From a virus (Duplodnaviria > Caudoviricetes): a stretch of DNA of 64,000 nucleotides. Position 1 is the stretch's first letter. Each line of letters opens with the position of its first letter. The notes under the pieces were generated by a model. The model worked only from the letters and a program-made list of their open reading frames with translations, was not told the DNA's origin and made no database searches. Location of the stretch: IMG/VR virus record IMGVR_UViG_3300012855_000001, positions 1,419 through 65,418 of that record. The stretch is one strand, 5' to 3'. Position numbers and translations under genes: made by a program. Of this stretch, positions 3,060 to 49,500 are shown in pieces.

Positions 3060-5614
3060 GAAAGCTTATTTTAACTGTCCTGACTTTATTGACTGCTGCT
3101 CTGTGTATGGGGCAATCTGATAAGATCATAAACCAGGGAGGGGGAGCCACTCAGGAGTTGAGTTATGACTCTGCAACTGGGCAGATGAGTATTACAGATG
3201 CCCAGGGGGCAACCATTACGTTGATGACAGGGGCCAGCTCTAGCAGCGATGGGCAGCGGGGCCTGGTGCCTCAGCCATTATCTGGAGAGGAGGGCCTTTT
3301 TTTACGTGGGGATGGAACATGGGCCAACCCTACTGTTGGCGGTGATAACTGGGGCAGCCAGGTGGCTCAAAGTTCTGGTTTTGTAGGTGGCAACGGCACA
3401 GCAGCAAACCGTCTCCGGCTTGTTCAAAACGGAGCTACAGACGGCCAGGTAATTGCCTGGGACAACGGGCTGGGGGAATGGGATGCCAGGGCGCAACTAG
3501 ACAGCCAATTGCTCAGCCTGTCAGCAAACACGCTGGAGCTGACAAACGGCGGCTCCGTAGACTTATCTGGGTACCTGGATAACACGGACACCCAGGATTT
3601 AAGCCTGGCAGCCAACGTGCTAAGCCTCACAGACGGCGGCTCTGTTGACTTATCTGGGTACCTTGACAACACGGACACCCAGGATTTAAGCCTGGCAGGT
3701 ACCACCCTAAGCCTGACAAACGGCGGCTCAGTTGATTTGAGCGCATTACAAGACGGTACGGGTACGGATGACCAGGAACTCACTTTAACTGGCAACACGC
3801 TCAGTATAGAGGGAGGGAATAGTGTAAGCCTGGCAGCGTATTTGGACAACACGGACACCCAGGATTTGAGCCTGGCAGGCAGTGTGCTCAGTTTGACAAA
3901 CGGCGGCTCTGTTGATTTGAGCAGCCTGGGTGGTGGAGACCCAGACCAAACGCTGAGCTTTTCGGGCACGACTTTAAGCATAAGCGGAGGCAATAGCGTG
4001 AATTTATCCAGTCTCCTGGACAATACAGACACCCAGGATTTGAGCCTGTCAGGCAGCGTGTTAAGCCTCACCAACGGTGGGAGTGTTGACCTCAGTAATG
4101 TTGATGACTCAGACATCCAATTTATTTCCATTAACACGTCCGGCTCTTTTTTGCAGTTTAGCCTCACAGACGCAAACACTAGCAGTTTAAATTTATTTAC
4201 AGATGTCACAATGGGCGGGGGAGGTTCACAGCTCAACCCTCTGTATGTGGATACCACGTATATTGCCACCCAGTACGACCTCACAAACGCCACAGCATCT
4301 GCTAGTAATGGTTTGAGCATAGACTCTGGGAGTGGAGATGTTGTACTGGGCGGCCCTATGACTCAAAAGGCTGTCATTGAGATGGAAAACCAGGCTATCG
4401 AGTTCAACGCGGACAATAACGGATTTACTGATTTTGACGCGGTAAGTGATAGTATTTTTATACGGTTTATTGATGGCCGTGGCGTGGTGTACGGATTTGG
4501 TGTCAGCGATGGGAACCAGCCAGGGTATTTGCTTATGGACAGGGTGTATGGCTCAGATTACACAAAACTGATTGCATACAATGAGTCTGACAAAATCAAT
4601 GTAGGGGATTTGTCTAAAGAGCTGGAGCTGGTTGGTTTTGAGTATTACCTCAATAGTGGCTTTAGTGTTGATACATTAGCCGCTGGGACTGTTGACTATT
4701 TACTGGGTTTCAATAGCTCCACCGGGCAATTTGGGCCCACCACTCAACTCACAACAAATGGCGGCGGCAGCAGTGGCGGCGGCGCATTTTCAACCACAAA
4801 CAATGTCACCAGTAATGCCCCAGGCGATTACGCAAATGATGACTTTGTGTTTGGCTCTCCTCAGCTCGATGGCAACGGCACGAACAATAGACGCATGTTT
4901 TTTGATGTCAGCAAAGGCTCACTGTATGCAAACGAGGCAACGGGGACAGAGTACGATGACACAAACAGAGGTTTTAACGTGTTCAACGCGTCCCGCAACA
5001 GTATTACATCCGGCTATGCCTCAGCGGCAATGGGTGGACAAAACAACACAGTGGTGGGGGCTGGTTCTGCTGCTGTGGCGTGTAGTGGCTGCGATTTGCC
5101 AATGAATTACTCAGTAGGCATGGGCATAGGCCCGAAAGTTTTAGAACCTCAGAGCTTTGTACACGGCAACGGCTCGTTTGACTCTGGAGAGGTAGGGCAA
5201 AGGCAGTACACGCGGCTGGTTCTTTATGGCGATGGCACAGGCACCTCTCAGTTTAATGTGTATGCCAGTAATGTAAACGCGGTAAACGTCCCCACAGATC
5301 ACATTTGGACTGGTACCTGGTATTGCAGTTTGCTGGTAACAACAGGCGGCGGCATAGTTGACCAGGGGGATTACAACCCCATATTTGGAGATTTTTACGC
5401 ATACAACCGGGGCGGCACCATGCAGGTACAGTACAGTGTTAGTGGAGCCTCTAACGTGTGGGATGACCCAGATATGAGCAACTCGGATGTTGAGTTAAAC
5501 GCTGACAATGTAAACAAAGCGGTACAGGTCAGAGTCCAGCCTAGCACAGACGGGGACTCTAATATGGAAACCAGGTGTGTGTGTGTTCTGGAGTTCGTAC
5601 AAACAGCATATTGA
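3056..5614 (+). CDS. Tail-fibre/adhesin-like repeat protein with Sec signal peptide
   Basis: MRKLILTVLTLLTAALCMG|Q signal; fibre motif GLVPQP...FLRGDGTW; about 7 TDxQDLSL repeats; SNAPGDYANDDFVFGS motif and short YadA-head-like repeats (SAAMGGQNNTVVGAGSAAV). Confidence 0.75.
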   Translation: MRKLILTVLTLLTAALCMGQSDKIINQGGGATQELSYDSATGQMSITDAQGATITLMTGASSSSDGQRGLVPQPLSGEEGLFLRGDGTWANPTVGGDNWGSQVAQSSGFVGGNGTAANRLRLVQNGATDGQVIAWDNGLGEWDARAQLDSQLLSLSANTLELTNGGSVDLSGYLDNTDTQDLSLAANVLSLTDGGSVDLSGYLDNTDTQDLSLAGTTLSLTNGGSVDLSALQDGTGTDDQELTLTGNTLSIEGGNSVSLAAYLDNTDTQDLSLAGSVLSLTNGGSVDLSSLGGGDPDQTLSFSGTTLSISGGNSVNLSSLLDNTDTQDLSLSGSVLSLTNGGSVDLSNVDDSDIQFISINTSGSFLQFSLTDANTSSLNLFTDVTMGGGGSQLNPLYVDTTYIATQYDLTNATASASNGLSIDSGSGDVVLGGPMTQKAVIEMENQAIEFNADNNGFTDFDAVSDSIFIRFIDGRGVVYGFGVSDGNQPGYLLMDRVYGSDYTKLIAYNESDKINVGDLSKELELVGFEYYLNSGFSVDTLAAGTVDYLLGFNSSTGQFGPTTQLTTNGGGSSGGGAFSTTNNVTSNAPGDYANDDFVFGSPQLDGNGTNNRRMFFDVSKGSLYANEATGTEYDDTNRGFNVFNASRNSITSGYASAAMGGQNNTVVGAGSAAVACSGCDLPMNYSVGMGIGPKVLEPQSFVHGNGSFDSGEVGQRQYTRLVLYGDGTGTSQFNVYASNVNAVNVPTDHIWTGTWYCSLLVTTGGGIVDQGDYNPIFGDFYAYNRGGTMQVQYSVSGASNVWDDPDMSNSDVELNADNVNKAVQVRVQPSTDGDSNMETRCVCVLEFVQTAY

Positions 5615-6313: not shown

Positions 6314-6403
6314 CCTCACCGCTGACAACTTCAGTGGTTTGTGGTAAAAGCCAGCGGCTCTGCATTTTATTTGCAGGGCCGTTGCTTGTTAAGGCTTTTT
6401 TTT
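6314..6403 (+). ncRNA. Candidate small RNA B, antisense to the ACCACAAACCA gene leader
   Basis: Promoter TTTG(6279-82)-N20-TACCTTTA(6303-10); hairpin 6318-6338; TGGTTTGTGGT at 6335-6345; 13-bp hairpin 6352-6384; T8 tract 6396-6403. Confidence 0.6.
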
Positions 6404-6553: not shown

Positions 6554-7684
6554 ATGGTATTCAATCTCAACATTGACCAGGAGTTTTGCCTGGCTCTAGG
6601 CCTCAAACCCACAAACGCTGAGGCATACGTTTTATCCTACCTTACAAAGGCAGCCACCTGGGCAGAGCCTATACAGATCAAAAAGCAAACATGGTATTTT
6701 GTCTCCCGCACAAAGGTAGTGGCTGACCTGCCGTGGATAAGCAGGAAACCAGACACCATTTACAGGTACTTTACTGCCCTGGCAGATAAAAACCTCATCG
6801 AGTACCAAAAAATGGGCAAATACGATTGCATAAGGCTGGAGGAGGTTTGCCAGTTTTGGGGCAAAGCTAAAGGGGAGGAGTTCCTCGGACACTTATCCGA
6901 GCACTCGGACAGGTATCCGGGCGCACTCGGACAGGTATCCGAATTTTACTCGGACAGGTATCCGACATACTATAGTATTATATTAGATAATAGTATTAAA
7001 GATACTAAAGGGGATTTTCCAAAATCCCCACCCACTCAACCTGAGGCTGGGAAAAGTAAAAAAGCAGCCATTCCAGAGGACGTGGCAAAGCTCCTGGAGG
7101 ACAGTGGGGACAAACAGCATAAGCTCTGGACTCGGTTGACCCAGAAAACGCGGAAGTATATACCCCAGGTGCTGGAGGTGGTGAGTTATTACAACGAGAT
7201 CACTGGTACCAGCACAAAGCCATACACGGTGGGGGTATATGACAACGTGGTGCGGTGGCTTAAAGAGGGCCACACCCTGGAGGACTTTAAAGATGTGCTG
7301 AATTACAAATACTGGTACTTTACGGAAAAGATGCCAGAACCCTCCAACATCAACCTGGAGACCTGGCTGAGGCCCAAACGCTTTGAGGGTAACCTAGAGC
7401 GGGCAAAGGTCTGGAAACAACAGGAGGCTCCTGTTGATTTATCAAAAGCCACAAACGAGTCATACATCAATTTTGTGCAGTATGTGAGCAAGTCCGAGCT
7501 AGATTTACAGCGGTTTATACCAACGGAGGCACAGTACGTGGATTACCTGGAGCGTAACTCAGGCAACCAGGCAGGAGCCAAAAGCAGGCTAGTGGCAGCT
7601 CTCAACAAACTGGTGCAAGACCCCAGAAAGTACAGCCACACAAACCTCATAGACCTGGCAGAGGGTGCCAAACAGTTTGCGTAA
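6554..7684 (+). CDS. Replication initiator (lambda O-like; N-terminal winged helix plus conserved phage C-terminal domain)
   Basis: WYFVSRTKVVADLP...KPDTIYRYF N-terminus; YYNEITG...RWLKEGHTLEDFKDVL...RFEGNL C-terminal motif; internal iterons. ATG 6554 chosen because it follows the leader motif. Confidence 0.8.
   Translation: MVFNLNIDQEFCLALGLKPTNAEAYVLSYLTKAATWAEPIQIKKQTWYFVSRTKVVADLPWISRKPDTIYRYFTALADKNLIEYQKMGKYDCIRLEEVCQFWGKAKGEEFLGHLSEHSDRYPGALGQVSEFYSDRYPTYYSIILDNSIKDTKGDFPKSPPTQPEAGKSKKAAIPEDVAKLLEDSGDKQHKLWTRLTQKTRKYIPQVLEVVSYYNEITGTSTKPYTVGVYDNVVRWLKEGHTLEDFKDVLNYKYWYFTEKMPEPSNINLETWLRPKRFEGNLERAKVWKQQEAPVDLSKATNESYINFVQYVSKSELDLQRFIPTEAQYVDYLERNSGNQAGAKSRLVAALNKLVQDPRKYSHTNLIDLAEGAKQFA
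6884..7010. repeat. Iteron-type replication origin
   Basis: Four CTCGGACAGGTATCCG-like repeats at 6884, 6904, 6926 and 6949, each a TCGGA-N6-TCCG(A) dyad, followed by an AT-rich tract at 6971-7010. Confidence 0.8.
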
Positions 7685-12748: not shown

Positions 12749-13129
12749 ATGTATTTTAGCAAAGCAAATGCCATCATAACTGGCAACCTGACAAAAGACC
12801 CAGAGGTGACAACAGCAAACTCTGGCCTGACCATTGCCCGGTTTACCGTGGTGGTGAACAAGCGCATAAAGCGTGGGGAGAACAATTACGAGGATAAGGC
12901 TGTGTTTTTCAGTGTTGCGGCTTTTGGGAAAACGGCAGAGCATTGCCAGAAACATCTGCAAAAAGGCCAGCGGGTGGCACTGGAGGTGGATATTGACTCC
13001 TCCGAGTACGAGGGCCGCATGAGGTATGACTTTATTGTGCGCGACTTTTGCCCAGGAGTGCTGCCGCTGAGTGCCCGCTCGTCTGGCTCTGGCTCTGGCT
13101 CCGGCTCAAACTACGGCATACCAGGATAA
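12749..13129 (+). CDS. ssb: Single-stranded DNA-binding protein
   Basis: IITGNLTKDPE...ARFTVVVN...FFSVAAFGKTAE...LQKGQRV OB-fold signature. Confidence 0.9.
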   Translation: MYFSKANAIITGNLTKDPEVTTANSGLTIARFTVVVNKRIKRGENNYEDKAVFFSVAAFGKTAEHCQKHLQKGQRVALEVDIDSSEYEGRMRYDFIVRDFCPGVLPLSARSSGSGSGSGSNYGIPG

Positions 13130-13566
13130 TGGGGCCGAGTCCAAAAATACCGGGGGTGCTGGTGTCTTTATTCGATTTGAGGTACGTGTACCTTATAAAA
13201 TCCAGCTCTGGGCGCATAAAGGTTGGTATTAGCAACTATGTGCCCAGGAGGCTGGACAGGATAGACAAAAGCACCCCTAACAGCCGGGAGTACCTTATTG
13301 GCTCAGCACTCTGCCTGGGTGCCACAAAGGTGGAGCATAGGCTCCAGCGAAAGCTCAAAAAGGCAAACCTCCACAGCCCATACGTGGGCAGCGGGCGCAC
13401 AGAGTATTTTAAAGCCAAAGCCAGCGGGCTGGCAACCTGGCTGGGCGTATTGTTCGAGGTCTATTTTAGGTCTTTGATCAACAACGCGGCACTGGCTTGC
13501 CTGGTTATATTGGGCCCATTTATTGTTTTAGAATATGCGCCAAATATTTTGGAGTTAATGTTTTAA
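13129..13566 (+). CDS. GIY-YIG / T5orf172-like nuclease-domain protein
   Basis: YVYLIKS...IKVGIS...RRL...EHRLQ...TEYF, plus a hydrophobic C-terminus. Confidence 0.7.
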   Translation: MGPSPKIPGVLVSLFDLRYVYLIKSSSGRIKVGISNYVPRRLDRIDKSTPNSREYLIGSALCLGATKVEHRLQRKLKKANLHSPYVGSGRTEYFKAKASGLATWLGVLFEVYFRSLINNAALACLVILGPFIVLEYAPNILELMF

Positions 13567-13620
13567 AATGGTATCTTGCACCCGTTAGGAATTACAGCGG
13601 CCAAAACCACAAACCACGGT

Positions 13621-14355
13621 ATGGCCGAGAAATTGACCACGCTGGAGCTGTTTAGGGCCCGGCAGCAGTCTAAAAAACACACGGTTGTCATAGAAAGCTA
13701 CGACAAAAAATACGACTTCTCTAGCCCACCCATTGATAAAACAATGGGGCGCATTATAATTGGCATAGACTCAGACACAAAAGCGTGTGGAGTCAGTGCC
13801 TATGATACCAGGGACGGCTCTGTGCCTTTTTATGAGGAGGTGGAGCCAGCGTTTATGCAGGAGTGCCTGGGGGATTTGCAACGGGATTATGGCAAAGACT
13901 TGGTTTTATTCCGTCTGGAGACCATAACCATGCAAACCATTTACGGAGTGGTTAAGGATTTGAGGGCAGCCCTCAGGGGCAAGGCCTCAAAACAGGAGAT
14001 CGAAAAGCAGGTGTTTGCGTTGACGTTGCACTCTGGCAGGTGCCATGAGATTTGCAATAGCATAATAGCGTCTTTTCGCAGGCTCCATGCACCGCACCAT
14101 CTGGTGCCCTCCCAGAACAGAACCAACTTTAAAAAAGGCCGGTTTAGGCAAATGGAGGATGAGCAGTTTGTGCGGTATTTGAAACAGTGTTTTATGTCTA
14201 ACAGGGACAGGTGTTACCCGTCTAAAGTTAGCGCGAAAAAATTAAAGCTTGCATTTCCAGCCGTAAAGGTGGCCGGGAGTGAAGAAAATAAAGACGCTTT
14301 GCTGCTGGCCTGCCCTGAGGCCGCATACAGGAAATTGCAGCGAAAAGAGCGTTAA
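13621..14355 (+). CDS. RuvC-like Holliday junction resolvase
   Basis: IIIGIDSD...CGVSAY N-terminal RNase H-fold strand, FRLE, and C-terminal KDALLLA. Confidence 0.6.
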   Translation: MAEKLTTLELFRARQQSKKHTVVIESYDKKYDFSSPPIDKTMGRIIIGIDSDTKACGVSAYDTRDGSVPFYEEVEPAFMQECLGDLQRDYGKDLVLFRLETITMQTIYGVVKDLRAALRGKASKQEIEKQVFALTLHSGRCHEICNSIIASFRRLHAPHHLVPSQNRTNFKKGRFRQMEDEQFVRYLKQCFMSNRDRCYPSKVSAKKLKLAFPAVKVAGSEENKDALLLACPEAAYRKLQRKER

Positions 14356-14370
14356 GATTTACACACCTTT

Positions 14371-14457
14371 CCTGGCAATTCCTGCCGGGAATCTGGTTTG
14401 TAGTGTTGTTATTATCCCGAAAGCCCAGGACTCCCAAACCCTGGGCTTTCTTTTTTT
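14371..14457 (+). ncRNA. Candidate small RNA D (or 3'UTR-derived), antisense to the AACAACAC(A)CAAACCA leaders
   Basis: Hairpin 14371-14389; TGGTTTGTAGTGTTGTT at 14394-14410; terminator GAAAGCCCAGG/CCTGGGCTTTC plus T7 at 14419-14457. Confidence 0.45.
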
Positions 14458-14474
14458 ACCACAACCCATTTGAG

Positions 14475-14900
14475 ATGCCAGTCAATTACAAAGATTACCA
14501 CCCGCTGTGGTCTTATATTAGCCTCCTGGTGCGGCACAATATTGCCCAGTGGCACTGTGAGTGGTGTGCAGTTCCGCATGGCTCACAGATCAAAGACAGA
14601 GCCTCCAGAGTAGTGCTCACTGTGGCGCACATTGACCACGACAAAGAAAACAACAGCCTGGAGAACCTGGCAGCCCTCTGCCAGTCTTGCCACCTCGGCC
14701 ATGACCGCGGCCAGCACATGGACAACAGGAGTTATGGGCGCAACTGGAAAAAGGCCCAGATTGCCCTGTTTGATGCCCAGGAGTACGTCCACAACCCATG
14801 CCCTGAGTACACAGCCCACACAGGTGTAAAGTGGCAGGAGAGAGGGTTTAAAACCCCATACATGGAGCTGCCAAACCCAGCCTGGGGCTGGATGTTGTAA
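14475..14900 (+). CDS. HNH endonuclease
   Basis: CEWC...LTVAHIDHDKENNSLENLAALCQSCH. Confidence 0.85.
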   Translation: MPVNYKDYHPLWSYISLLVRHNIAQWHCEWCAVPHGSQIKDRASRVVLTVAHIDHDKENNSLENLAALCQSCHLGHDRGQHMDNRSYGRNWKKAQIALFDAQEYVHNPCPEYTAHTGVKWQERGFKTPYMELPNPAWGWML

Positions 14901-14917
14901 TTATTTTAGCAGATAGG

Positions 14918-14970
14918 TGCCAAAATATTTGGAATAGTCTGAGGTTTGTTTTACATTTGTATCAACAACA
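14918..14970 (+). promoter_or_regulatory. Cassette-type promoter with dyad operator
   Basis: TGCCA-N7-TGGAA overlapping TTTG, with a TACATTTG -7 box. Confidence 0.7.
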
Positions 14971-14988
14971 ACACACAAGCCACCTATT

Positions 14989-15297
14989 ATGGACTTTCCA
15001 AAAAAATGTAAACTGGCCCTCACAATGGGCAACCTCCTCCGCTCTAAAAAGTACGGAGGCTACAGCCCTAGCATTGCAATGAGCATGGCCTGGGACTACG
15101 TTGAGCAGCTCCAGGAGCTGGAGCACAGCCTGTTTATTATTAAGTTCTACAGCGCAAGCGCAAAAAGAGAGGTGACCAAAGTGGCAATTTTTCTGCCTAC
15201 AGAGGAGCCACACCTCCAGAATTACCTGGACGCGGTGCTGGAGTGCAAAGGCGAGAACTCATTTAGGAGGTTTAAAAGAGACCTCCGAGTGGCATAA
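14989..15297 (+). CDS. Hypothetical protein
   Basis: 102-aa ORF after promoter and leader. Confidence 0.7.
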   Translation: MDFPKKCKLALTMGNLLRSKKYGGYSPSIAMSMAWDYVEQLQELEHSLFIIKFYSASAKREVTKVAIFLPTEEPHLQNYLDAVLECKGENSFRRFKRDLRVA

Positions 15298-15310
15298 AAT
15301 CCAGATCAAA

Positions 15311-15637
15311 ATGAAAGATACCCGCATGACATTTTACGGAGCCACCCCAGAGCATGACATTTACGTGCTCTGGCTGGCTGAGTACCAGCATAACCAGGAG
15401 CTGGCCAGTGAGTACGCGTATTTTCAGGGCCGAACTGGCCCTACTAAAAACCTGGAGTTGGCAAGACAGTACAGGCCCTCTGAGATCGAGAGCAGCAACT
15501 ACCCTGTTGCTCGGACTCCAGCGGAATTAATAGACGCGGCAGTGCAGGCCAGCGTTGAGGCTGTTTTTGTACCCAAAGACAACATACAGCACATATTTGC
15601 CGGATATTCTCAAACCGTATCAAACCCATTTATATGA
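15311..15637 (+). CDS. Hypothetical protein
   Basis: 108-aa ORF in operon. Confidence 0.65.
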   Translation: MKDTRMTFYGATPEHDIYVLWLAEYQHNQELASEYAYFQGRTGPTKNLELARQYRPSEIESSNYPVARTPAELIDAAVQASVEAVFVPKDNIQHIFAGYSQTVSNPFI

Positions 15638-28361: not shown

Positions 28362-28526
28362 GAAACAGGCCCAGAGCCTGGAGTATTACTCCCCCGTGGG
28401 GCACCCTCCTGCCTGGGCTGCCTCACTTTTTTTTACAGATAAATGCCAAATTATTTGGAATTGTCCAGACTTATGTGCACCTTTGTAATTGTCAGAGAGA
28501 GACACACAACACACAAACCAAAGATT

Positions 28527-28895
28527 ATGTACAATATTAATGACCCACGTTTTACCCCAGGCACCAAAGCAAATGAAATCCTCCAGGAGTCCCTGGAGTC
28601 TGCCAAAAAGTACGAGGCCCGCGTGGAGGCTGCAAAGGCTAACGCTCCTGAAATTAAGGCAGTAAAGCCTGAGCCTGTTGAGTGGGTGGAGTTCGAGGGC
28701 ACAATGGTGCTCCGTTCTGGTGAGTCCCGCTTTGTTGCTGTGCCCCATAGCGGCCGCAAAAATAGCGCAAAGTGGCACATTATCAACCTGGATGACCGCT
28801 CAGACGTATGGTGCACCGTGGCCAAAAAGGAGGTGCGCACCTGGTTGTCTGGGGTGGCGGCAAATGAGATCAAAGACAAAATTTATTCCAAATAG
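28527..28895 (+). CDS. Cassette hypothetical protein
   Basis: ATG directly after the repeated leader. Confidence 0.75.
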   Translation: MYNINDPRFTPGTKANEILQESLESAKKYEARVEAAKANAPEIKAVKPEPVEWVEFEGTMVLRSGESRFVAVPHSGRKNSAKWHIINLDDRSDVWCTVAKKEVRTWLSGVAANEIKDKIYSK

Positions 28896-28977
28896 TTTGG
28901 AATTGCCGTTTAGGTTCCTTACCTTTACGGATGTCAGAGAGACACAGAGTATTTAACAACACACAAACCACAGCAAA

Positions 28978-29292
28978 ATGGCAAACGTTAAGATTACAAA
29001 GGATAAGGCAGGGTATGCAAACGGAGTGACCGCTCCGACTAAAAGCCCTAACTTTTACCGCATGGCCAAAGACTACATTACCGAGCGGGAGTATTACGAG
29101 TTTTACCAGGCCCTGGGCCGTGACACAGACGCGTCCCGGCACTTTTACACCTCCACCGTGGTGTACGGCCTGACATCGGCTCTGGATACGGCTGAGCGCA
29201 AGCTCTTTGAGGAGGTTGTAAAGCTTGCCACTCCACACGCACAGGCTTTGGCAAAGATCACAGCGGCAGAGTACAAAGAGCGGTACCAGTAA
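28978..29292 (+). CDS. Cassette hypothetical protein
   Basis: ATG after the repeated leader; followed by hairpin plus T tract. Confidence 0.75.
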   Translation: MANVKITKDKAGYANGVTAPTKSPNFYRMAKDYITEREYYEFYQALGRDTDASRHFYTSTVVYGLTSALDTAERKLFEEVVKLATPHAQALAKITAAEYKERYQ

Positions 29293-29429
29293 ACACAACA
29301 GCCCAGGCAGCCCCACCAGGCACCTGGGCATTTTTTTTGCAGAAACATTCCATAATATTTGGAATTGCCCCAGAGGTTTTGCACCTTTGTAATTGTCAGA
29401 GAGATACAACAACACACAAACCACAGAAC

Positions 29430-29696
29430 ATGAAAAAGTCAAAAATTAAGATGACAGCGAACGGAGCCAAATGGTTTGGCATTGGTATTTTTACCTGCGT
29501 TGTCATCAAAGACGGCCAGCGGCACCCGCATACAAAGCACAAGTTTACAGACGCTGGTTGGGTAATATCCCTCCTGGAGTGCAAAGGTATTAAGTACACG
29601 CTCAGCGAGAGCAGAGTGGAGGGCATGACCCTGCTGGCTTTTGTAATGCCAGAAACCGGGGACACGGTACACATGACCCTGGAGGGCGAGGTGTAA
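29430..29696 (+). CDS. Cassette hypothetical protein
   Basis: ATG after the repeated leader. Confidence 0.7.
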   Translation: MKKSKIKMTANGAKWFGIGIFTCVVIKDGQRHPHTKHKFTDAGWVISLLECKGIKYTLSESRVEGMTLLAFVMPETGDTVHMTLEGEV

Positions 29697-29755
29697 AAGC
29701 CCAGGTGGGGTGAGAGGCCCCACACTCATTTTCTTCAACACACAAACCGCATATT

Positions 29756-30139
29756 ATGGCAGCTCGTACAATTTTATCCAGGAACCTCCAGCCGCTAAAG
29801 GCAGACCAGGTGCTCCCTATTGCATACAAATGGGCAGAGGCCCTGGAGGGCCGGGAGCTGGAGTACAGGTTTGACCCTCCCCTGGCAGAGGGCTGGGGGG
29901 CAGAGTGGGCACAGTTCACTCCAGCAGACTATCCAGCAGACACGCTGGATGGCATAGAGGTAAACGCTGAATGGATGGGCGAGGCCTGGGCTTTTGAGGT
30001 CATTGAGTACCAAGCAGGCACAGACGGCAAAGAGTTGCACGTCTTTAAGGTTTACAGCCGTCTGGGGGATGCCCTCAACCTGGTTGAGAAAATGGCCCGC
30101 ACAGGCAAAAAGCCAAAGCCACAAAAGGTATGGACATAA
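29756..30139 (+). CDS. Cassette hypothetical protein
   Basis: CACAAACC leader. Confidence 0.7.
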   Translation: MAARTILSRNLQPLKADQVLPIAYKWAEALEGRELEYRFDPPLAEGWGAEWAQFTPADYPADTLDGIEVNAEWMGEAWAFEVIEYQAGTDGKELHVFKVYSRLGDALNLVEKMARTGKKPKPQKVWT

Positions 30140-30193
30140 AGGGCCAGGGGCACTGCCCCACCCTGCATTTGATCACACGTAAACAACAAAGCA

Positions 30194-30487
30194 ATGATAA
30201 TACTGGAGAGTAAGACACTGGAGCTGCTGAGCGTTGAGCAGCAAATTTTTGAGATGGCAAAAGACGCATACCAGAGGGACATGGAGCTGGACAATATAAC
30301 TGTTGACTCATTAGGGGACGGTGAGTACAGGCTTTACCACTCCTCCCGGTACTGTGTGACCTCCACGGAGGTGCAAACCGAGCATTTTTATGAGTGGCGG
30401 TTTGACGGTGACCAGTTTGAGGGTTTTGTGCCCATTACGGCTGAGGAGTTTGTGCGGCTCCTCAAAACTGACTACCACAACGCATAA
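30194..30487 (+). CDS. Cassette hypothetical protein
   Basis: 97-aa acidic ORF. Confidence 0.7.
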   Translation: MIILESKTLELLSVEQQIFEMAKDAYQRDMELDNITVDSLGDGEYRLYHSSRYCVTSTEVQTEHFYEWRFDGDQFEGFVPITAEEFVRLLKTDYHNA

Positions 30488-30680
30488 AGAGCAGGGGAGC
30501 CACCACCCCACCCCAGGGCAAACCATTGCCCAGGACTCTGACCTGGTGGATATTTGTGGGAGGTCTTTGTGTGGGCCTCTCACTTTTTTTACAGATATGT
30601 TCCATATTATTTGGAATTATCAAATAGTATGTGCACCTTTGTAACTGTCAGAGAGATACAACACACACAAACCAGAAGTT

Positions 30681-31100
30681 ATGAGAAAGTATAAGAAAAT
30701 GCCCATTATGTCCCTTGCCTCCCAGGTATACGTGGACATCCAGGATAAGGTTGAGAGCGATGACCCACGCGTGGTATACGCAATGGTGCTTTCAAACGTT
30801 GAGAGCCTCAGGGGCCAGGCTTGTACCGCTGTGGAGCGGGAGTCCATCCGGGATGCCCTGGAGTTTATGGGACTCGCACCCCTGCCCACCCTGGCAGATG
30901 TTGAGGACGGCACAGAGGTATACCTCCCCAGCCAGCGGGACGGCTGGACATACTGGGGCAAACATACCGTGCGGTTTGTCTCCCACTACGGGGACGGGCC
31001 AATGATCGAAACCAGCCACGGACTGATTGCAGCAAAGCCTCACAGAGATTACCTCCCAGCCACAGCCCAGTTTAAAGCCATTATGGGCTACCTGGTGTAA
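30681..31100 (+). CDS. Cassette hypothetical protein
   Basis: ATG after the repeated leader. Confidence 0.75.
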   Translation: MRKYKKMPIMSLASQVYVDIQDKVESDDPRVVYAMVLSNVESLRGQACTAVERESIRDALEFMGLAPLPTLADVEDGTEVYLPSQRDGWTYWGKHTVRFVSHYGDGPMIETSHGLIAAKPHRDYLPATAQFKAIMGYLV

Positions 31101-31172
31101 GGCACACAGATAAAACCACTCCTGGAGGCTCTCAGAGCCTCTGGGGCTATTCAATAACCACAAACCACTTAT

Positions 31173-31355
31173 TTGATGGCTAAAAAAAAGAAGTACATAA
31201 GCGTGGCCCCCCCTGCCCACTTAAAGGGCAAAACCATACACCACGGCAAAGGTGAGCCAGTGCATCTGCCAAAGGCTCCCAAATCCCTGCTCCAGAAAAT
31301 CGTGGCCGGCATACGGGACGGCACGGTGACAGAAATAGGAGTGCCAGAGGATTGA
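31173..31355 (+). CDS. Small basic protein
   Basis: ACCACAAACCA leader at 31157. Confidence 0.6.
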   Translation: MMAKKKKYISVAPPAHLKGKTIHHGKGEPVHLPKAPKSLLQKIVAGIRDGTVTEIGVPED

Positions 31356-31465
31356 TTTGATTTTATTTGCAATTAGGTGCCATATTATTTGGAATTGTCA
31401 AATAGTATGTGCACCTTTGTAATTGTCAGAGGGAAGCATATTACACAACACACAAACCAGAGACA

Positions 31466-32149
31466 ATGACACACTTTAAAATTGAGTTGATTACAGAGAT
31501 AGGCACCTTTAAGTTTGAGCAGCACTTTAACAGCGAGGCTGACCATTACCAGGCCATGCTCCTGTTCCAGAGTAACAACTGGGAGCAGCTCGGTGAGACC
31601 TCATACAGGGTACACACCCGCTGGCCAGATGAGATGGTGACCTCCACCACGTTCTCAGGTATCAATGCCTCAGCCCACCTGGCTGAGTATATGGAGCCAG
31701 ATGGTGAGTTTGAGGAGGAGCCACAGGAGCCTGAGGAGCCACGCTCAGAGGCCAGCCTATTGGCTCAGGTATGCACTATTTACACCCGTGTGAGTGGGCT
31801 AATGGACAACCTCTCAGACAATGAGGTTTATACAACAGTCCTGGCTGCATCTGAGGAGTATTTTGACCGGCCAGTGGAGGACTGGGAGCGGGCTATTGTC
31901 CGCAAAGCCCTGGAGTTTATAGGGTATAATTTTAAGGGCCTCGGCGATTTGCCCCACGGCACATTTGTGTATGTGCCGTCTCTGGAGGGAGAGGACACGC
32001 TCACCTGGGAGGAGGTAATGGTCTGGAAAGAGCAGGGAGGCCTGTATTTATCCTCACACGGGGAGCGGGTAGATGCTGACCCAGAGAGCCAGGACTTTAT
32101 TGAGTCCACTGGGTACAACCGCAGGGCATACTCTAGCCTGGTGGGATAA
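31466..32149 (+). CDS. Cassette hypothetical acidic protein
   Basis: ATG after the repeated leader; the track start at 31409 lies inside the promoter. Confidence 0.75.
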   Translation: MTHFKIELITEIGTFKFEQHFNSEADHYQAMLLFQSNNWEQLGETSYRVHTRWPDEMVTSTTFSGINASAHLAEYMEPDGEFEEEPQEPEEPRSEASLLAQVCTIYTRVSGLMDNLSDNEVYTTVLAASEEYFDRPVEDWERAIVRKALEFIGYNFKGLGDLPHGTFVYVPSLEGEDTLTWEEVMVWKEQGGLYLSSHGERVDADPESQDFIESTGYNRRAYSSLVG

Positions 32150-32244
32150 TTATTTTTACATTAGGTGCCATATTATTTGGAATTGCCAATTAATATGTGC
32201 ACCTTTGTAATTGTCAGAGAGATACAACACACAAACCAAGTACA

Positions 32245-32544
32245 ATGAAAGACGTTAAGCAGATCAAAGCAAAAGCAGAGGCAGACATAAAGGATTTGGC
32301 TGGCCGTTTTGAGGATGGAAAACTGACCCTGGGCACCAGGGAGTTTAAGCTCCTCCACGCGGGCCGCTCATTCCTGCGAGTGGCGGGGCCACGCGGTACC
32401 GTGTACAATATCGTGCCATGCCCTCAGTGCACAGTCATTGAGGACAACAGCCTGCCTGTTTACTCGTTTACGAGGCTGAGCAGGAGCTTTGATTTTACAT
32501 TTGATCGGGATGGCCAATATATTGAGCTATCCGGCAACGCATAA
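32245..32544 (+). CDS. Cassette hypothetical protein
   Basis: ATG after the repeated leader. Confidence 0.7.
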   Translation: MKDVKQIKAKAEADIKDLAGRFEDGKLTLGTREFKLLHAGRSFLRVAGPRGTVYNIVPCPQCTVIEDNSLPVYSFTRLSRSFDFTFDRDGQYIELSGNA

Positions 32545-32573
32545 TTTTACAACACACACACAAACCACCGAGA

Positions 32574-33008
32574 ATGAAAAAGATTAACCAGACCAACCAG
32601 ACCAACCAGACAGACATGGCAAAGATCAAATCAGGTCTGTCTCAAATGATCGAAAAGAACAACCAGGAGGTTGAGTCTTTGGCAGTCAAAATCCAGTCAG
32701 CCCACAACGCTGAGCAGGCCGTAAAGTATGCCACTCAGTTAAAAATCCGGCAGAGGGTAAACGACCTATACGAGTCAGGGTTTAACGCCAACACAGACAC
32801 CCTGGAGGAGTTTGTGGAGGCTGTAAATTACCTCATGCGGGACGCTTTGCGGATGCGGCTGGATGTGCGAACGTCAGGAGCCATGCACATTGATGGCCTA
32901 GTGTTCGTGGAGGCTGCAAATTCCCTCTATACCCTGGCAAAGGTCAACTTTGTCAGCCGGGAGGAGTTCAAGTTTGCCCAGACGTTTGAGCTGGTTCGCA
33001 TGGGGTAA
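32574..33008 (+). CDS. Cassette hypothetical protein
   Basis: CACAAACC leader; N-terminal NQT x3 microrepeat. Confidence 0.7.
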   Translation: MKKINQTNQTNQTDMAKIKSGLSQMIEKNNQEVESLAVKIQSAHNAEQAVKYATQLKIRQRVNDLYESGFNANTDTLEEFVEAVNYLMRDALRMRLDVRTSGAMHIDGLVFVEAANSLYTLAKVNFVSREEFKFAQTFELVRMG

Positions 33009-33061
33009 AACCCTGGGGGCATGTCCCCCACTCTTTTTTTTTCTCACCACAAACCACGTTT

Positions 33062-33394
33062 ATGTACAGAGTTGAAAAAGCTGGCAAGTACAACAGCATG
33101 GAGCTGGCACTGGCTACAGCTCACAGTGTAGCACTGAGAGAGAATAGGCCAGCCCGTATTTACTACGGCCAGCGGGTGGTCTTTACGACCAAAGACCCGA
33201 CACAGTTTAAACGGTTCAAAGCTAACTATTTCTATAGGTTGCCATCTGGTAAAAGGGTGAAGCTCACCCACCACAGAGGTGGGGCTGCCTCATTCAAAGC
33301 CAAAGGAGAACAGGCCATCCATGTGACTATCCTGTTTAACATGGCTGGCCGGGAATATTGCACAGTGTATGGGGAGACCTTGGTGGCAAGGTAA
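33062..33394 (+). CDS. Hypothetical basic protein
   Basis: ACCACAAACCA leader at 33046. Confidence 0.7.
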   Translation: MYRVEKAGKYNSMELALATAHSVALRENRPARIYYGQRVVFTTKDPTQFKRFKANYFYRLPSGKRVKLTHHRGGAASFKAKGEQAIHVTILFNMAGREYCTVYGETLVAR

Positions 33395-33533
33395 ACCCCA
33401 GGATACAGGGGCCTCACAGCGGGGCCTCCTATTTTTTTGCAATAAATATTCCATATTATTTGGAATTGTCCAGAACTATGTGCACCTTTGTAATTGTCAG
33501 AGGGAAACATACACAACACACAAACCATTTGTT

Positions 33534-33803
33534 ATGAATATTTTAAACGAGATCACAGCGCAATACAACCACAACCACCCCACCACCTATGCAGACGGCA
33601 AAACGTCTGTGGTTGTGGAGAACGTAGGCGAGGGCCTACACAGCACATTTGCCAAAATCATTAAGCTCCTCAGGGCTGACGGTTTTGATCGTATCCTCTG
33701 CGAGGATTACGGTAATGCTCAGGTTTTCTACTATGGCAAAGGCTTTGAGCGTGTGAGCCTCTGGATGTACCCAGCAGGTGACACAGTTAAAATAATTGCA
33801 TAA
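33534..33803 (+). CDS. Cassette hypothetical protein
   Basis: ATG after the repeated leader. Confidence 0.7.
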   Translation: MNILNEITAQYNHNHPTTYADGKTSVVVENVGEGLHSTFAKIIKLLRADGFDRILCEDYGNAQVFYYGKGFERVSLWMYPAGDTVKIIA

Positions 33804-33839
33804 CCAGCGGCCCGCTGTTCAGGGCAAAATCTTTGTACT

Positions 33840-34166
33840 ATGTTTTACGAGTTTGGGACTTTTCGGATGAGCGTTATTAAGGACACCAAAGGCTATGAGG
33901 TAGCCCTGGAGCCTGAGCACCACGGAGAGAAGCTCCTGGAGCCTTATCTGTACTATGAGGGCAAAAACGGCCTGAATACTTACAGGCTGGTACCCCAGGA
34001 GGTGCTGGAGGTGCTGACGGTAAAGCACACCATTTTCTCTGGCCGGGAGCGTGTGGCACTATGGGTGGGCCTCAGTATGGTCTCTGCCAGGTTCCCAGTG
34101 GAGGACGCGGCAGAGCGTTGGCTCAACGGTGATCGCAATGTGTCAGCCGGGGCCCTCCTAGTTTGA
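33840..34166 (+). CDS. Hypothetical protein
   Basis: 108-aa ORF. Confidence 0.65.
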   Translation: MFYEFGTFRMSVIKDTKGYEVALEPEHHGEKLLEPYLYYEGKNGLNTYRLVPQEVLEVLTVKHTIFSGRERVALWVGLSMVSARFPVEDAAERWLNGDRNVSAGALLV

Positions 34167-34218
34167 TTTTTAACCACAGGCTGGGGCACTGCCCTGGCCC
34201 TAAATTTATATTGCTGTC

Positions 34219-34416
34219 ATGGATGAGATACAGGTCACACACGCGGTTTTTATTCGCAAGTATTGCGAGCTTTTAAGCAGGGATTACTGGGAGGTGGAGT
34301 CATACCACCAAACAGAGCCAGAGGCTTTGCAGGCCATGCTGGGTTACATCCAGGCGGGAGGTACCTGCAAAATTGATAAGGTGTACAACCAAAAGGGCCG
34401 AAACCCTAATTTATAG
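34219..34416 (+). CDS. Small hypothetical protein
   Basis: 65-aa ORF after a TATATTGC box; followed by a terminator. Confidence 0.55.
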   Translation: MDEIQVTHAVFIRKYCELLSRDYWEVESYHQTEPEALQAMLGYIQAGGTCKIDKVYNQKGRNPNL

Positions 34417-34558
34417 GGCAGGCATGGAGCTGGCAGTGCTGGCTCCTATTTTTTTTACAATTAGGTGCCATATTATTTGGAACTCTCGTTTATTATATGC
34501 ACCTTTGTAATTGTCAGAGGGAAAGAGATTATTTAACAACACACACAAACCGCAAACC

Positions 34559-35383
34559 ATGCAATTCGAGACAGGAAAAACTTACCGCATAAAGTTTATA
34601 GGTGACTCAGAGCTGGAGACACCTGCCACCGTTGTCAAGCGTACCGCAAAAACGGTATGGCTGGACATTCAGGGGGAGACGGGTATTGTCCGTAAAAAGA
34701 TCAAGCAATACGAGGACGGCACAGAATACTGTGAGCCATACGGCACCTACTCCATGCGGCCCTACCTGAGTGCGGCAAAGCCCGTACAGGAGGCTCCAGA
34801 GACACCTGAGGAGCCAGACGGCACCCAGGAGGCTCCAGAGGGCACTGAGGGCACCCCAGTGGCTACAGCAGCCTCTGAGGAGGCCTCTGAGCAGGAGGAG
34901 GAGCGTTTTTACTTGCTGACCATTACAGAGTCCACCTCTGTGTCCAGTAACATCCACAGCCCCAGAGGTAGCCAGGCACGAAACAGGGCCATCTCCAGTG
35001 CGGTTTATGGCTCTTTGCCCAGCCTCCTCTCAAAGTTGATGACTCAATGGATAGGAAAGTACACCCCAATTACTGGGGAGCTGTCAGCCCTGACACCTGG
35101 TGCCTTTAAAGTGTACACTCCCTATGGGAGCACGAACATTTTTTATAAGGTCACCAGGCTGGCCCCAGCCGGGACAGTAAACGCTGGGCTGCTTAGTGAG
35201 GATGAGCACAGCCTCCTCCAGCTCATCATTGAGTCATTCAGCCAGGGCAATTGCTGTGTGGTTGACATGGTGGATGGGCCATACTCTATGCCCACCCTGG
35301 CAAACCTCAAAGGGCGTGGCTTGGTAAAGTACACGGAGGTGGGGTTTGGCATGTATGACATTGAGCTGGCTGCCGGCCTATAA
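34559..35383 (+). CDS. Cassette multi-domain hypothetical protein
   Basis: N-terminal small beta domain (FETGKTY...VVKRTAKTV...PYGTYSMRPYL), acidic linker, and C-terminal wHTH-like segment. Confidence 0.7.
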   Translation: MQFETGKTYRIKFIGDSELETPATVVKRTAKTVWLDIQGETGIVRKKIKQYEDGTEYCEPYGTYSMRPYLSAAKPVQEAPETPEEPDGTQEAPEGTEGTPVATAASEEASEQEEERFYLLTITESTSVSSNIHSPRGSQARNRAISSAVYGSLPSLLSKLMTQWIGKYTPITGELSALTPGAFKVYTPYGSTNIFYKVTRLAPAGTVNAGLLSEDEHSLLQLIIESFSQGNCCVVDMVDGPYSMPTLANLKGRGLVKYTEVGFGMYDIELAAGL

Positions 35384-37131: not shown

Positions 37132-37615
37132 CAAACTTACTCAAAGCATTGAGCTGGTACCACCAGTTAAAGCCCTGAGTATACGGGAGCCATTTGCCTC
37201 GCTGGTGCTCCAGGGAAAAGTGGAGACCAGGAGGTGGGATACGTCCCACAGGGGCACCGTTTTGATTTGTGCCAGCCAGAGGGCGTTTAGGCCATCCGAG
37301 GTACTAAAGATTGCAGGCCCTTGGAATTACCAGCGGATTCTCCACTACGTGGGCCCTGACTGGGGCAAGCTTTGCGGCCATGCAATAGGTGTGGCTCGGC
37401 TAGTTAACACATGGAAAATGACCCCAGAGGATGAGGAGGCCACATTTGCCAGGTACCACTCTGGGCTGTACTGCCATAAGTATGCAGGGGTAAAGGCCAT
37501 TAACCCATTCCCTTTTAAAGGGCAGGTGAGGTGGACAAACCTGAGCCAGGAGCAAGTGGCACAGATCGAGCTGCCAGTTTTTGAGTTTCCAAATGATTTG
37601 GATTACTGGCACTAA
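37124..37615 (+). CDS. ASCH-domain protein
   Basis: KALSIREPFASLVLQGKVETRRW...RGTVLICAS. Confidence 0.85.
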   Translation: MTNKLTQSIELVPPVKALSIREPFASLVLQGKVETRRWDTSHRGTVLICASQRAFRPSEVLKIAGPWNYQRILHYVGPDWGKLCGHAIGVARLVNTWKMTPEDEEATFARYHSGLYCHKYAGVKAINPFPFKGQVRWTNLSQEQVAQIELPVFEFPNDLDYWH

Positions 37616-42009: not shown

Positions 42010-42896
42010 TCACACTAACGCTGGCAGACGGCAACAAACTGGCCGTACACACTGGGTACAAAGAGCTGAGCCATGCTCAGTATATTGATTTTCAGCATGG
42101 CAAACTGAGGTATATTAGAAACCTGCTAGAGGATGAGGTGGATAATTTCCGGCCTGAGATTATGGCAGAGGCCCTGAGTGCTGTGGTAGACGGCAACCTG
42201 GGCACCTTGCCATTTATGCTGGAGGAGGACAACCTCAAAGACAAAGACCTGCCACCATTGACCGAGGGCATAAGCCTGTACAGGCTTTACCTTTACTATG
42301 AGCGTTTAATGCAGGAGTATGACCCGTCCAGCTTTGATTTTACAAAACAGGATTATGAGTACACCTATAAAGGGCAGCGGTACACCCTCACAGCGGACAG
42401 GGCATACAGGGTGGTCTCCAGGAACAGAGTGAGATGGGACACAGACCCTGAGGAGCTGGACTCTGAGGGCAACCCCAAACCGCTCCAATTTACCACACTG
42501 GAGGTCATTGAGGTTAACACTCTTTTCCACCTCCTGGCAAAGAGCCAGAAACAGGCAAAGCAGGACAAGGCCTCCCAGACATTCAGCACAGATTTAATGA
42601 TGCTGGCCATACTCCTCAGAAAGCCTGGGGAGGAGATACCCATAATAAAGAAAGAGCGGGACGCATGGCTGAGCCAAAGGGCTGAGCACTTTGTGGATAT
42701 TCCTAACTGGGTGGTAAAGGACATCACTTTTTTTTTGACCAATACCTCCAGAGTCTTAGAGATAGCCCTGAGTACGGAGCTTTCTTTTATGGCCCGAAAG
42801 AATTTAGTTTCCAGCGGAGACCTGGACGCAATTCTGAGGGAGGCAATGCTGAGGACTACGAACAAGCTTTTAAAGAAGCCTATAGAGAGTACATAG
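42006..42896 (+). CDS. Tail assembly chaperone-like protein, with a probable -1 frameshift extension to 43045
   Basis: LAILLRKPGE...RAEHF...VKDITFFL pattern; T9 run at 42728-42736; -1 frame open to TAA 43043-45. Confidence 0.6.
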   Translation: MITLTLADGNKLAVHTGYKELSHAQYIDFQHGKLRYIRNLLEDEVDNFRPEIMAEALSAVVDGNLGTLPFMLEEDNLKDKDLPPLTEGISLYRLYLYYERLMQEYDPSSFDFTKQDYEYTYKGQRYTLTADRAYRVVSRNRVRWDTDPEELDSEGNPKPLQFTTLEVIEVNTLFHLLAKSQKQAKQDKASQTFSTDLMMLAILLRKPGEEIPIIKKERDAWLSQRAEHFVDIPNWVVKDITFFLTNTSRVLEIALSTELSFMARKNLVSSGDLDAILREAMLRTTNKLLKKPIEST

Positions 42897-46583: not shown

Positions 46584-49500
46584 GTGCAGGTAATTGCGTA
46601 TGAGTTAAAAATTGACGGTGTAGATGTTGCAATACGCAACCAGAAACAGCTCAAAGAAGCGGTTAAGCTGCTTAACCGGGAGCTGCTGGAGGTTGAGGAT
46701 GCAAACAGGTACAAAGAGATACAGCGAGACCTGGGAGCCTTAAAAGGTATCCAGAAACAGGTACGCGATGAGACCCGTAAAAGCCAGCGGGCATTTTTGG
46801 AGTCTGCCGAAAAAGGGAGCGAAAGTTACCGGGAATTACAGTTTAGGCTCACCAGGCTCAAAAACGAGTACAAAGACCTGGGCCGGGAGGCTAGAGAGTC
46901 CGGCCGTGGATTAAACCTCCAGGGGCAAATTAGCTCCATAACTCAGGAACTCAAAACGATTGACAAAGGCTTTGGGGACAGTTTCAGGAATGTGGGTAAC
47001 TACAAATCCGCTGTGTCTGGGGCTTTTGGTGCTTTAAAGGGTGGGCTGGCTGCCGCTGGCATTGGCCTGGCACTCGATCAAATAAGCCAGGCTTTAATTT
47101 CATCCATCAAACTGTTTGCGGACTTTACCAACCAGGTGGCTATCCTCCAGGCTGTGAGTGGTGCCAGTGCGGATGAGGTGGCAAAACTTAGAGACCGGGC
47201 ACTGGAACTGGGCGAAACCACGCAGTTTACAGCCTCCCAGGTGGCGCAATTGCAGATAAATTTTGCACGGGTGGGATTTGATACCCAGGCAATTGACAAC
47301 GCAACGGAGAGCACCCTGGATTTGGCGCTGGCTACCGGGGAGGATTTGGCTGAAAGTGCTGACGTGGTGGCAGCCACCCTGGGCGGTTACCAGTTATCAG
47401 CCAGGGAGACAAAGCGCGTAAATGATGTCCTGGCTCAGAGTTTCAACTCCTCAGCCCTCCAGCTCGAAACGTTTAGGGAGTCAACAAAGAACGTGGCACC
47501 CGTAGCGGCCTCTGTTGGTATCCAGATAGAGGAGGCCACCGCGTCAATTGCAGCCCTGGCAGATGTAGGCATACGCGGCAGCCGCTCAGGCACAGCGTTG
47601 AGGCGAGTGTTTACAGACCTGGGCACAGAAAGCTCAAAATTGTCCCAGGAGGTGGGCTTTGTGGTTGAGTCATCCGAGGATTACGCACGGGCCCTGGATG
47701 TTTTGCAGGAAAAGCAAATAGGGGTATCTGAGGCAACGGAGCTGGTGGGCCGGGAGGCAGCAACCGCACTGACAGCCTTGGTGGCTCAGCGTGACAGCGT
47801 GGCAAGCCTCTCAGAGGCGTTTAACGAGGCCGGCGAGGTTGTTGATCAGTACGGCAACAAAGTGGGGGCAGCAGCAGCGGCTGCATCTATTGTGGAGGAC
47901 ACGCTCACTGGAGATATAAATAAATTCCGCTCTGCCCTGGAGGGTTTCCAGTTGTTCTTTGTAGACCTTTTTGACAATACAATCAGAGGGGTGGTACAGG
48001 GGGCCACATCTTTGTTTCAGCCGCTACAGTCCACCGTACAGTTTTTATTTGAGGCATTCCGGCCCTTAGTTGATGAGGTGGGGGCTTTAGTCTCCGAGTT
48101 GTTCAGGGGAACAGACCCAGCCAGGCGTTTTGGGCAGGTGCTGGATTTTATACGCAACACACTGGTGCTGGCTATCGGCATAATTACCCAAACTGTACGC
48201 GGCCTCAGGCTTTTTGTCCAGGTAGTAAAGGACACTATTGAGTCCAGCGCATTTTTGAGCGGCGTGGTGGATGGCCTGGCTAATACGTTCAATTTTTTGC
48301 GGGACACATTAGTGGAGATACCAAACGTTTTAAACGGTATCATTAACGCATACGGGGCCCTTCGTGACGCATTCCTGGGAGAGGGTAATTTTTCAGATGT
48401 TGGGGCAGCCTTTACCGAGGGGGCCGAGGCCTCCAGGCGTTATGCTGGAGAACTGGACAACCTCAAAGAGTCAGCAGAGGGAGCCAGCGGCGGTTTACAG
48501 CTCACTAAAGACCAGACCCAGCAGTTGAATGACCTTATACGGAGCCTGGGCAGAGACCTGGGGCTGAGCAGTAAATTATTGGCACAGATTGCAGACGATG
48601 CTGTGGCTAGTGCTGACTCTTTTGAGGACGCTGTTGAGCGTATCAACCAGGCGGCACTCCGGGCATTTGCAAATCAAAGCTCTGACAGCGGCTCAGCGGC
48701 CCCAGAGGGAGACAGCGGGGACACAACGGCTGAAAGGCTCCAGCTCCCGGCAGACGGCTCTGTGGAAGCTCTCAGGGGGCAATTGCAGGATTTAAAGCGG
48801 GAAGTTGAACGGCAGCCCTCTAATAATGCACTGAGGGCCACCTTTGATGAGATCATTGAGAAAGAGCAGGAGCTGCAAAAAGCAGAGGAGACCCTGGCAC
48901 GTCTTAGGATAGAGGCAGAGGGTGGCCGGGAGGCAATCACTGACCAGGCCACAAAGAGCCTGGAGGAGCTGGCAAACGAGGCCAGGAGAGCAGCAAATTT
49001 GCCAGAGGTAAACAACACCATTGGCCAGATAGACACTACGGTAAGCCAGGAGGGCCAGGAGCAGGCAGAGCTGGCAGCAATAGAGCGGCGGTCATTGCGG
49101 CAGATCGAGGCCCTACAGAGTGAAAACCTCGACTTTGAAAAGTACCAGGCCCGCAAAACGGAGATACTGGAGGAGGCAGAGCTGGAGCGGCTGAGGACTC
49201 AGTTAAAGTTTACGGAGGAGGGCAGCCAGGAGTACAGGAGGATAAAAAACCAAATGTATGAGGCAGAGCTGGAGGCAGGCAAAGAGGCAAAGCAGGGCCT
49301 CGTTGAGGTTGAGAATGACTTTTTAGCGCAAGTCAGGGACATTGGACTCAATGCTCTCCAGAGCGTTGTGGATGCCCAGTTTGAGCAGCGCACCCAGGCG
49401 GCAAAGGAGGCAGCAGATGAGAGGCTCAGAATTGCCGAGGAGGAGCGTGACGAGCGGCTGGAGGGAGTTGAGCGTGGCAGCCTGGAGGAGAAACGCATTG

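Follow-up and report, generated by a model that had tools for sequence, protein, structure and literature searches.

A candidate anti-leader small RNA unit in a pond phage with Bacteroidota-type promoters

Results

Genes and features of the locus

The DNA analysed here, referred to as the window, covers 64,000 of the 65,418 bases of a single-contig virus record from pond metagenomes (IMG/VR record IMGVR_UViG_3300012855_000001). It has 51% G+C and essentially all long ORFs lie on the + strand. The promoters are of the Bacteroidota type, TTTG-N19-21-TAnnTTTG, as known from promoter studies in Bacteroides and Flavobacterium. Six nearly identical cassette promoters (TTTGGAATTG ... CACCTTTGTAATTGTCAGAG) lie between 28.4 and 33.5 kb, others such as TATCTTTG and TAACTTTG occur as well, and there are no Shine-Dalgarno sequences before the start codons. 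The locus of interest lies in a replication and recombination module made of a primase-helicase, SSB, a T5orf172-type gene, a resolvase-like gene and an HNH endonuclease gene. No integrase or resolvase-type recombinase was detected in the genome.

Between the resolvase-like gene and the HNH gene there is an ORF-less spacer that contains a 5' hairpin, an open 20-nt stretch and a strong intrinsic terminator, confirming all of the elements listed in a preliminary description of the sequence (Table 1). The HNH start codon is at 14475 and not at 14476. The HNH assignment was confirmed (PHROG 1571, E = 1.5e-21; Pfam HNH), while the description of the upstream gene as RuvC-like is only weakly supported (PHROG 1770, Holliday junction resolvase, E = 6e-4; no Pfam hit). 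The spacer folds much better than shuffled sequence (-43.1 kcal/mol, z = -6.2, 0 of 200 shuffles as good), and the 87-nt core folds as hairpin, open stretch and terminator (z = -4.2). In the minimum-energy fold, however, part of the 20-mer can sit in a weak local hairpin, or pair with the sequence upstream of the hairpin if that is transcribed. No Rfam family, including the C4 antisense RNA (RF01695), reaches its gathering score anywhere in the window, and a search of 14300-14520 at E up to 10 gave only sub-threshold hits to terminator-like parts of unrelated sRNAs (best 20.2 bits against a 40-bit cut-off).

Table 1. Features of the window and of related phages
Genome	Position	Strand	Feature	Sequence or remark
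Window	13129-13566		T5orf172-type gene
Window	13621-14355	+	Resolvase-like gene, 244 aa	stop codon 14353-14355; class A leader AAAACCACAAACCA 4 nt before the ATG
Window	14356-14474		ORF-less spacer
Window	14364-14371	+	Weak -7-like box	CACCTTTC
Window	14371-14389	+	5' stem-loop	CCTGGCA-ATTCC-TGCCGGG, one G-U pair; extendable to 9 pairs at 14369-14391
Window	14394-14413	+	Anti-leader seed	TGGTTTGTAGTGTTGTTATT
Window	14419-14457	+	Intrinsic terminator	11-bp G+C-rich stem (14419-14450), 10-nt loop, C then T7
Window	14475-14900	+	HNH endonuclease gene	starts 18 nt after the T run; degenerate tag ACCACAACCCA; no promoter of its own
Window	6314-6403	+	Sister unit	TTTG-N20-TACCTTTA promoter, hairpin, seed GTGGTTTGTGGT (exact mirror of ACCACAAACCA), terminator
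Window	6538-40235		Range of the leader copies
Window	28443-35383	+	Cassette array, main target set	ACA(A)CACACAAACC(A/G) 6-7 nt before the ATG, 10 copies
Window	14967-14982		One more copy of the cassette leader	before the gene at 14989
Window	60200-60211		Chance-level complement inside a structural gene	CGGTTTGTGGG
G001	7210-7241		Promoter	TTTG-N20-TACCTTTG
G001	7280-7294		Seed	CATGTCTGTGTGGTT
G001	7300-7334		Terminator	T8
G001	37351-37409		Second mirror unit	TTTTGTTGTAACGATG
G001	42440-42800	-	Two genes with full promoter-leader cassettes
G002	5384-5435 and 7034-7082 (reverse-complement coordinates)		Two mirror-plus-terminator units
G004	31069-31100		Promoter	TTTG-N20-TACATTTG
G004	31109-31122		Seed	CATTTCACTTGCTT
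G004	46679-46723		Second mirror unit	TTAACTCGCTTTT
G004	50732-50766		Leader preceded by its own inverted repeat	CTTGCTTTTAAAGCAAGTTGAAATG

The promoter of the unit was considered uncertain in the preliminary description, and this doubt is justified. The cassette promoters have CACCTTTG as -7 box, whereas the box in the spacer ends in C instead of G and there is no TTTG -33 box 19-21 nt upstream. Moreover, if this box were used, transcription would start inside the 5' arm of the hairpin, so that the hairpin and that promoter exclude each other. A 3'UTR origin is therefore the better guess for this phage, and CACCTTTC may be a relic of the canonical promoter found at this place in relatives. The hairpin loop region at 14374-14382, GGCAATTCC, is the reverse complement of GGAATTGCC, which adjoins the -33 TTTG of three cassette promoters (28899, 29361 and 32179); this may be chance, or half of an operator.

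The leader mirrored by the seed

A CA-rich word, AACAAC(A)CACAAACCA, precedes about 23 start codons, and none of the structural genes (41-64 kb and 0-5.6 kb). Its 3' end lies 4-8 nt before the ATG in most of the 23 copies (one overlaps the ATG and one lies 12 nt away), while its distance to the nearest -7 box ranges from 8 to 37 nt and seven copies precede genes with no promoter box within 70 nt. The word is therefore anchored to the start codon and not to the promoter, which points to a role in the mRNA, as a translation start region for ribosomes that do not use Shine-Dalgarno pairing. Two classes can be distinguished. Class A, ACCACAAACCA, precedes 12 genes including the initiator, the primase and the resolvase-like gene, and class B, ACACACAAACC(A/G), precedes 11 genes, which are the cassette array and the gene at 14989.

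The 20-nt seed is the reverse complement of this leader with one bulge, and the matches previously noted near 28954 and 29407 are there. A match of 17 of 18 nt is expected about 0.01 times in shuffles. A 15-mer leader consensus with up to two edits has about 25 copies on the + strand, nearly all just before an ATG, and one on the - strand, at 14394-14410. No ATG or ORF follows this minus-strand copy, and a minus-strand gene start was therefore rejected. The 8-mer core ACAAACCA occurs 21 times forward and twice in reverse, at 14401 and 6342, against about one expected per strand, and both reverse copies lie in ORF-less units made of a hairpin, an open stretch and a terminator. We also scanned the 30 nt upstream of all 20 + strand terminators: the one at 14423 is complementary (at least 8 Watson-Crick pairs) to 21 start regions and the next best to 4.

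The seed pairs with class B leaders as 8 bp, a 1-nt bulge and then 8-9 bp (-17 to -22 kcal/mol), and less well with class A leaders (-13 to -19 kcal/mol). All 12 ACCACAAACCA-type leaders pair better with the seed of the sister unit (6335), and 10 of 11 ACACACAAACCA-type (cassette) leaders pair better with the 14394 seed. These results support the earlier suggestion that two RNAs serve two leader classes, although whether these are temporal classes, as was also proposed, cannot be told from sequence.

Related phages carry units matched to their own leaders

DNA and single-protein searches found nothing close. GenBank phages gave no blastn match, and tblastn with the primase and the protease-like gene gave only remote hits; searches of IMG/VR with the resolvase-like protein, the primase or the exact cassette promoter word, and of GTDB genomes with the capsid, found nothing. 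A metagenome scan with the primase alignment returned only distant primases (32% identity or less), and none of those loci of 7 kb or more shows a repeated pre-ATG word, so they say nothing about the unit. A homologue search with the primase nevertheless showed that relatives exist, and primases 98% and 53% identical were also encountered. One relative in IMG/VR, G001 (67,384 bp, terminal repeats), is syntenic over its whole length at 30-64% amino-acid identity. A capsid profile built from remote homologues found three more, G002 (a 40-kb fragment), G003 (54 kb) and G004 (64 kb, terminal repeats). The capsids of the four relatives are 46-64% identical. In addition, lake-water metagenome contigs hold a strain about 91-92% identical that spans the unit (window 13375-15391), where the only indels in the spacer are single bases after 14414, 14417 and 14450, in the linker and the T run.

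Each of the four relatives has its own repeated pre-ATG word: AAAACCACACAG followed by ATG in G001 (17 forward copies), CACAGTCAAAACC in G002 (10-11 copies), AAAAGCAAGTT (12 copies) and AAAAGCGAGTT (6 copies) in G004, and a weak CAACAAAC in G003 (3-4 copies). The two minus-strand genes of G001 are the only exception to the one-strand layout, and they account for the two other reverse copies of its tag. The three relatives that keep the resolvase-like gene (G001, 42% identity; G003; G004) carry an ORF-less unit ending in a terminator after that gene. In G001 it follows directly, with a full promoter, a stem-loop, a seed and a strong terminator; the seed is the mirror of AACCACACAGACATG, which is G001's own tag plus the start codon, and pairs with 20 or more G001 start regions at -18 to -23 kcal/mol. 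In G004 a full promoter after the resolvase-like gene is followed by an open seed, the mirror of AAGCAAGTGAAATG, and a terminator with T9. In G003 there is, one small ORF further on, a perfect -7 box (TACATTTG), a hairpin, GTTTGTTGTTTG and a terminator, but its tag is poorly defined and we consider this case weak. The fragment G002 lacks the region, but two of its paralogous genes, inside the cassette array, end in ...AAAGAACTAATGTTTT(G/T)A, where the mirror of G002's tag (GTTTTGACTG) overlaps the stop codon and is followed by a terminator.

Second mirror-plus-terminator units were found in 3'UTRs of G001 and G004. That of G001 is the mirror, minus one base, of CATCGTTAACAACAAAA, the promoter-proximal half of its cassette leader, and is complementary to 19 start regions. 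That of G004 is the mirror of AAAAGCGAGTTAA, the tag of its second leader class (AAAAGCGAGTT, 6 genes), and is the only reverse copy of that word outside a coding region; two tag classes with two mirrors is the same pattern as in the window. One further G004 leader is preceded by its own inverted repeat, and this cis hairpin would hide the tag of that single gene.

To measure specificity, RNAduplex energies were used genome-wide or with a fixed cut-off, but these did not separate targets from background because seed composition dominates. We replaced them with counts of start regions having at least 8 contiguous Watson-Crick pairs to each 26-nt seed region. Each seed hits its own phage, with 22/89 for the window, 17/103 for G001, 12/52 for G002 and 7/99 for G004, against a background in coding windows of 0.005-0.024 (0.008 for the window seed). 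Most cross-phage counts are much lower, at most 4, apart from the window seed's 12/103 in G001; the exceptions come from the AACAAC stretch that the window, G001 and G003 leaders share. A genome-wide 8-mer scan ranks the two window units first and second, but it also picks T-rich or chance coding windows such as 60188, where a 9-nt complement to the class A tag inside a structural gene ranks as high as the real units in a plain scan, and in the relatives such windows outrank the units. It is therefore not a stand-alone detector. The seeds themselves are unrelated in sequence, and what is conserved is the position, the architecture and the match to the local tag, which is the pattern expected for a base-pairing regulator. 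Seed and targets therefore change together, as seen in the window, G001, G002 and G004.

Discussion

Taken with the comparison of relatives, these analyses support the core of the earlier interpretation, that of a non-coding RNA whose unpaired stretch is antisense to the cassette-type leader. We consider it probable, although no transcript has been seen and no RNA run is listed for this DNA, that the spacer gives rise to a small RNA of about 85-100 nt, which may be the 3' end of the resolvase-like mRNA, a piece processed from it, or a weak transcript of its own. The stem-loop and the terminator hairpin would hold the 20-nt stretch single-stranded for pairing in trans with the leaders of the non-structural genes, best with those of the cassette type. 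Bacteroidota ribosomes do not use Shine-Dalgarno pairing and need an open, A-rich start region, and a 17-18-bp duplex ending a few bases before the AUG, or covering it in G001 and G004, should therefore keep the 30S subunit off and lower translation, and probably the stability, of the whole gene set at once. The sister unit would do the same for the other leader class. Trans action, repression rather than activation, and the time of action during infection are inferences.

Other explanations appear unlikely, though they deserve consideration. The leader tag could be the binding site of a phage DNA-binding protein and the reverse copy an inverted site, for example a regulatory or replication site, and joint change of a site and its inverted copy would be expected in that case too. 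The location in the replication module and the complementarity of the hairpin loop to sequence next to the -33 box of three cassette promoters are in keeping with this. However, the tag keeps its distance to the ATG and also precedes internal genes that have no promoter, the mirror runs on over the start codon in G001 and G004, and in five genomes it always lies on the coding strand directly before an intrinsic terminator, a placement that only makes sense for RNA. It is similarly doubtful that the spacer is only the terminator and 3'UTR of the resolvase-like gene, with a complementary stretch arising by chance or as a recombination scar between a leader and a terminator region. The lack of a convincing promoter, the low complexity of CA/GT-rich sequence and the chance 8-9-mers found elsewhere would fit such a view, but the rarity of the match in shuffles, the scan of terminators and the recurrence of the layout, with unrelated seeds that match the local tag, at the same place in G001 and G004 and nearby in G003 all contradict it.

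A cis-acting attenuator is also improbable as the sole explanation, but could hold in addition to trans action. In this view pairing of the seed, with abundant tagged mRNAs or with the downstream start region ACCACAACCCA, would decide whether transcription reads through the terminator or whether the HNH gene is translated. In the window and in G001 the next gene starts about 18 nt after the T run and has no promoter of its own, the minimum-energy fold pairs GUUGU of the seed with ACAAC of the HNH leader, and free-standing homing-endonuclease genes in T4-type phages seem often to be held in check by RNA structure. On the other hand, the downstream genes of the window and G001 (an unrelated 132-aa ORF) differ, and no HNH gene follows the unit in the relatives, although the downstream genes of G003 and G004 were not themselves examined; the HNH gene thus looks like a free-standing mobile insertion just behind the terminator. 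In G003 and G004 the downstream gene has its own promoter after the terminator, the G001 seed has no complementarity to its downstream start region, and the window seed matches 20 or more distant start regions much better than the adjacent one. A hidden small ORF was rejected as well: the frame is open from GTG 14403 into the HNH gene, and in G001 from the ATG inside the seed into the next gene, but both would run through a strong terminator, the peptides are unrelated, and 24 open codons are expected by chance about one time in three.

Among the closest known systems is GibS of Bacteroides thetaiotaomicron, a trans-encoded sRNA that represses by pairing an extended single-stranded seed with the region around the start codon of its target mRNAs, without Hfq (PMC7366714). 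GibS is chromosomal and has a few unrelated metabolic targets, while here the RNA would be phage-encoded, with about 20 phage genes sharing one repeated leader tag as targets, and no sequence relationship was found. The c4 antisense RNA of phages P1/P7 (immI) and the related P4 CI RNA are phage-encoded and pair with short repeated boxes near a ribosome-binding site in the phage's own mRNA; c4 can be made by processing a longer transcript, as is likely for the window copy, and its seed and targets appear to differ between related phages and to set specificity. However, c4 acts on one operon (icd/ant) as an immunity function of a temperate phage, whereas here there are 20 or more dispersed start regions and two RNA/leader classes. 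RegA of phage T4 (PMC3014915) works alike at the level of the programme, binding the start regions of many early mRNAs and turning their translation down together, but it is a protein that recognises a loose AU-rich consensus, where the factor proposed here would be an RNA reading an exact tag. The window copy, the second units of G001 and G004 and the G002 units have the layout of 3'UTR-derived sRNAs, with the seed between a gene's stop codon and its own terminator, as seems to be the case for the enterobacterial CpxQ, DapZ and SroC, which probably depend on Hfq and RNase E and have cellular targets. We found no published description of such anti-leader RNAs in Bacteroidota phages in limited full-text searches.

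Perhaps this lineage of pond and lake phages, which is probably lytic, runs its non-structural genes on a private RNA addressing system, a reading that we regard as about as likely as not. Each phage would stamp a phage-specific tag in front of the start codons of 15-25 genes and encode one or two small RNAs, stand-alone or in a 3'UTR, whose seeds co-evolve with the tag classes, giving class-specific translational control of the whole regulon without a protein repressor. Because the tags differ between relatives, the systems would not interfere with each other during co-infection, a lytic-phage counterpart of c4-type heteroimmunity.

Base-pairing small RNAs that block start regions are well known, and a few phage examples act on single operons. 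The present case differs in that one RNA is matched to a tag placed on a fifth to a quarter of the phage's genes, in that there are two RNA and tag classes in one genome, and in that seed and tag have been replaced together in related phages, the G003 case being weak. If confirmed, it would give annotators a simple signature for finding regulatory RNAs in uncultured phage genomes, namely the mirror of the most repeated pre-ATG word next to a terminator, and would supply small, mutually independent RNA/tag pairs that could be used as translational switches in Bacteroidota. It would also show how phages of Bacteroidota, whose ribosomes ignore Shine-Dalgarno sequences, organise translation and shut it off for whole gene sets.
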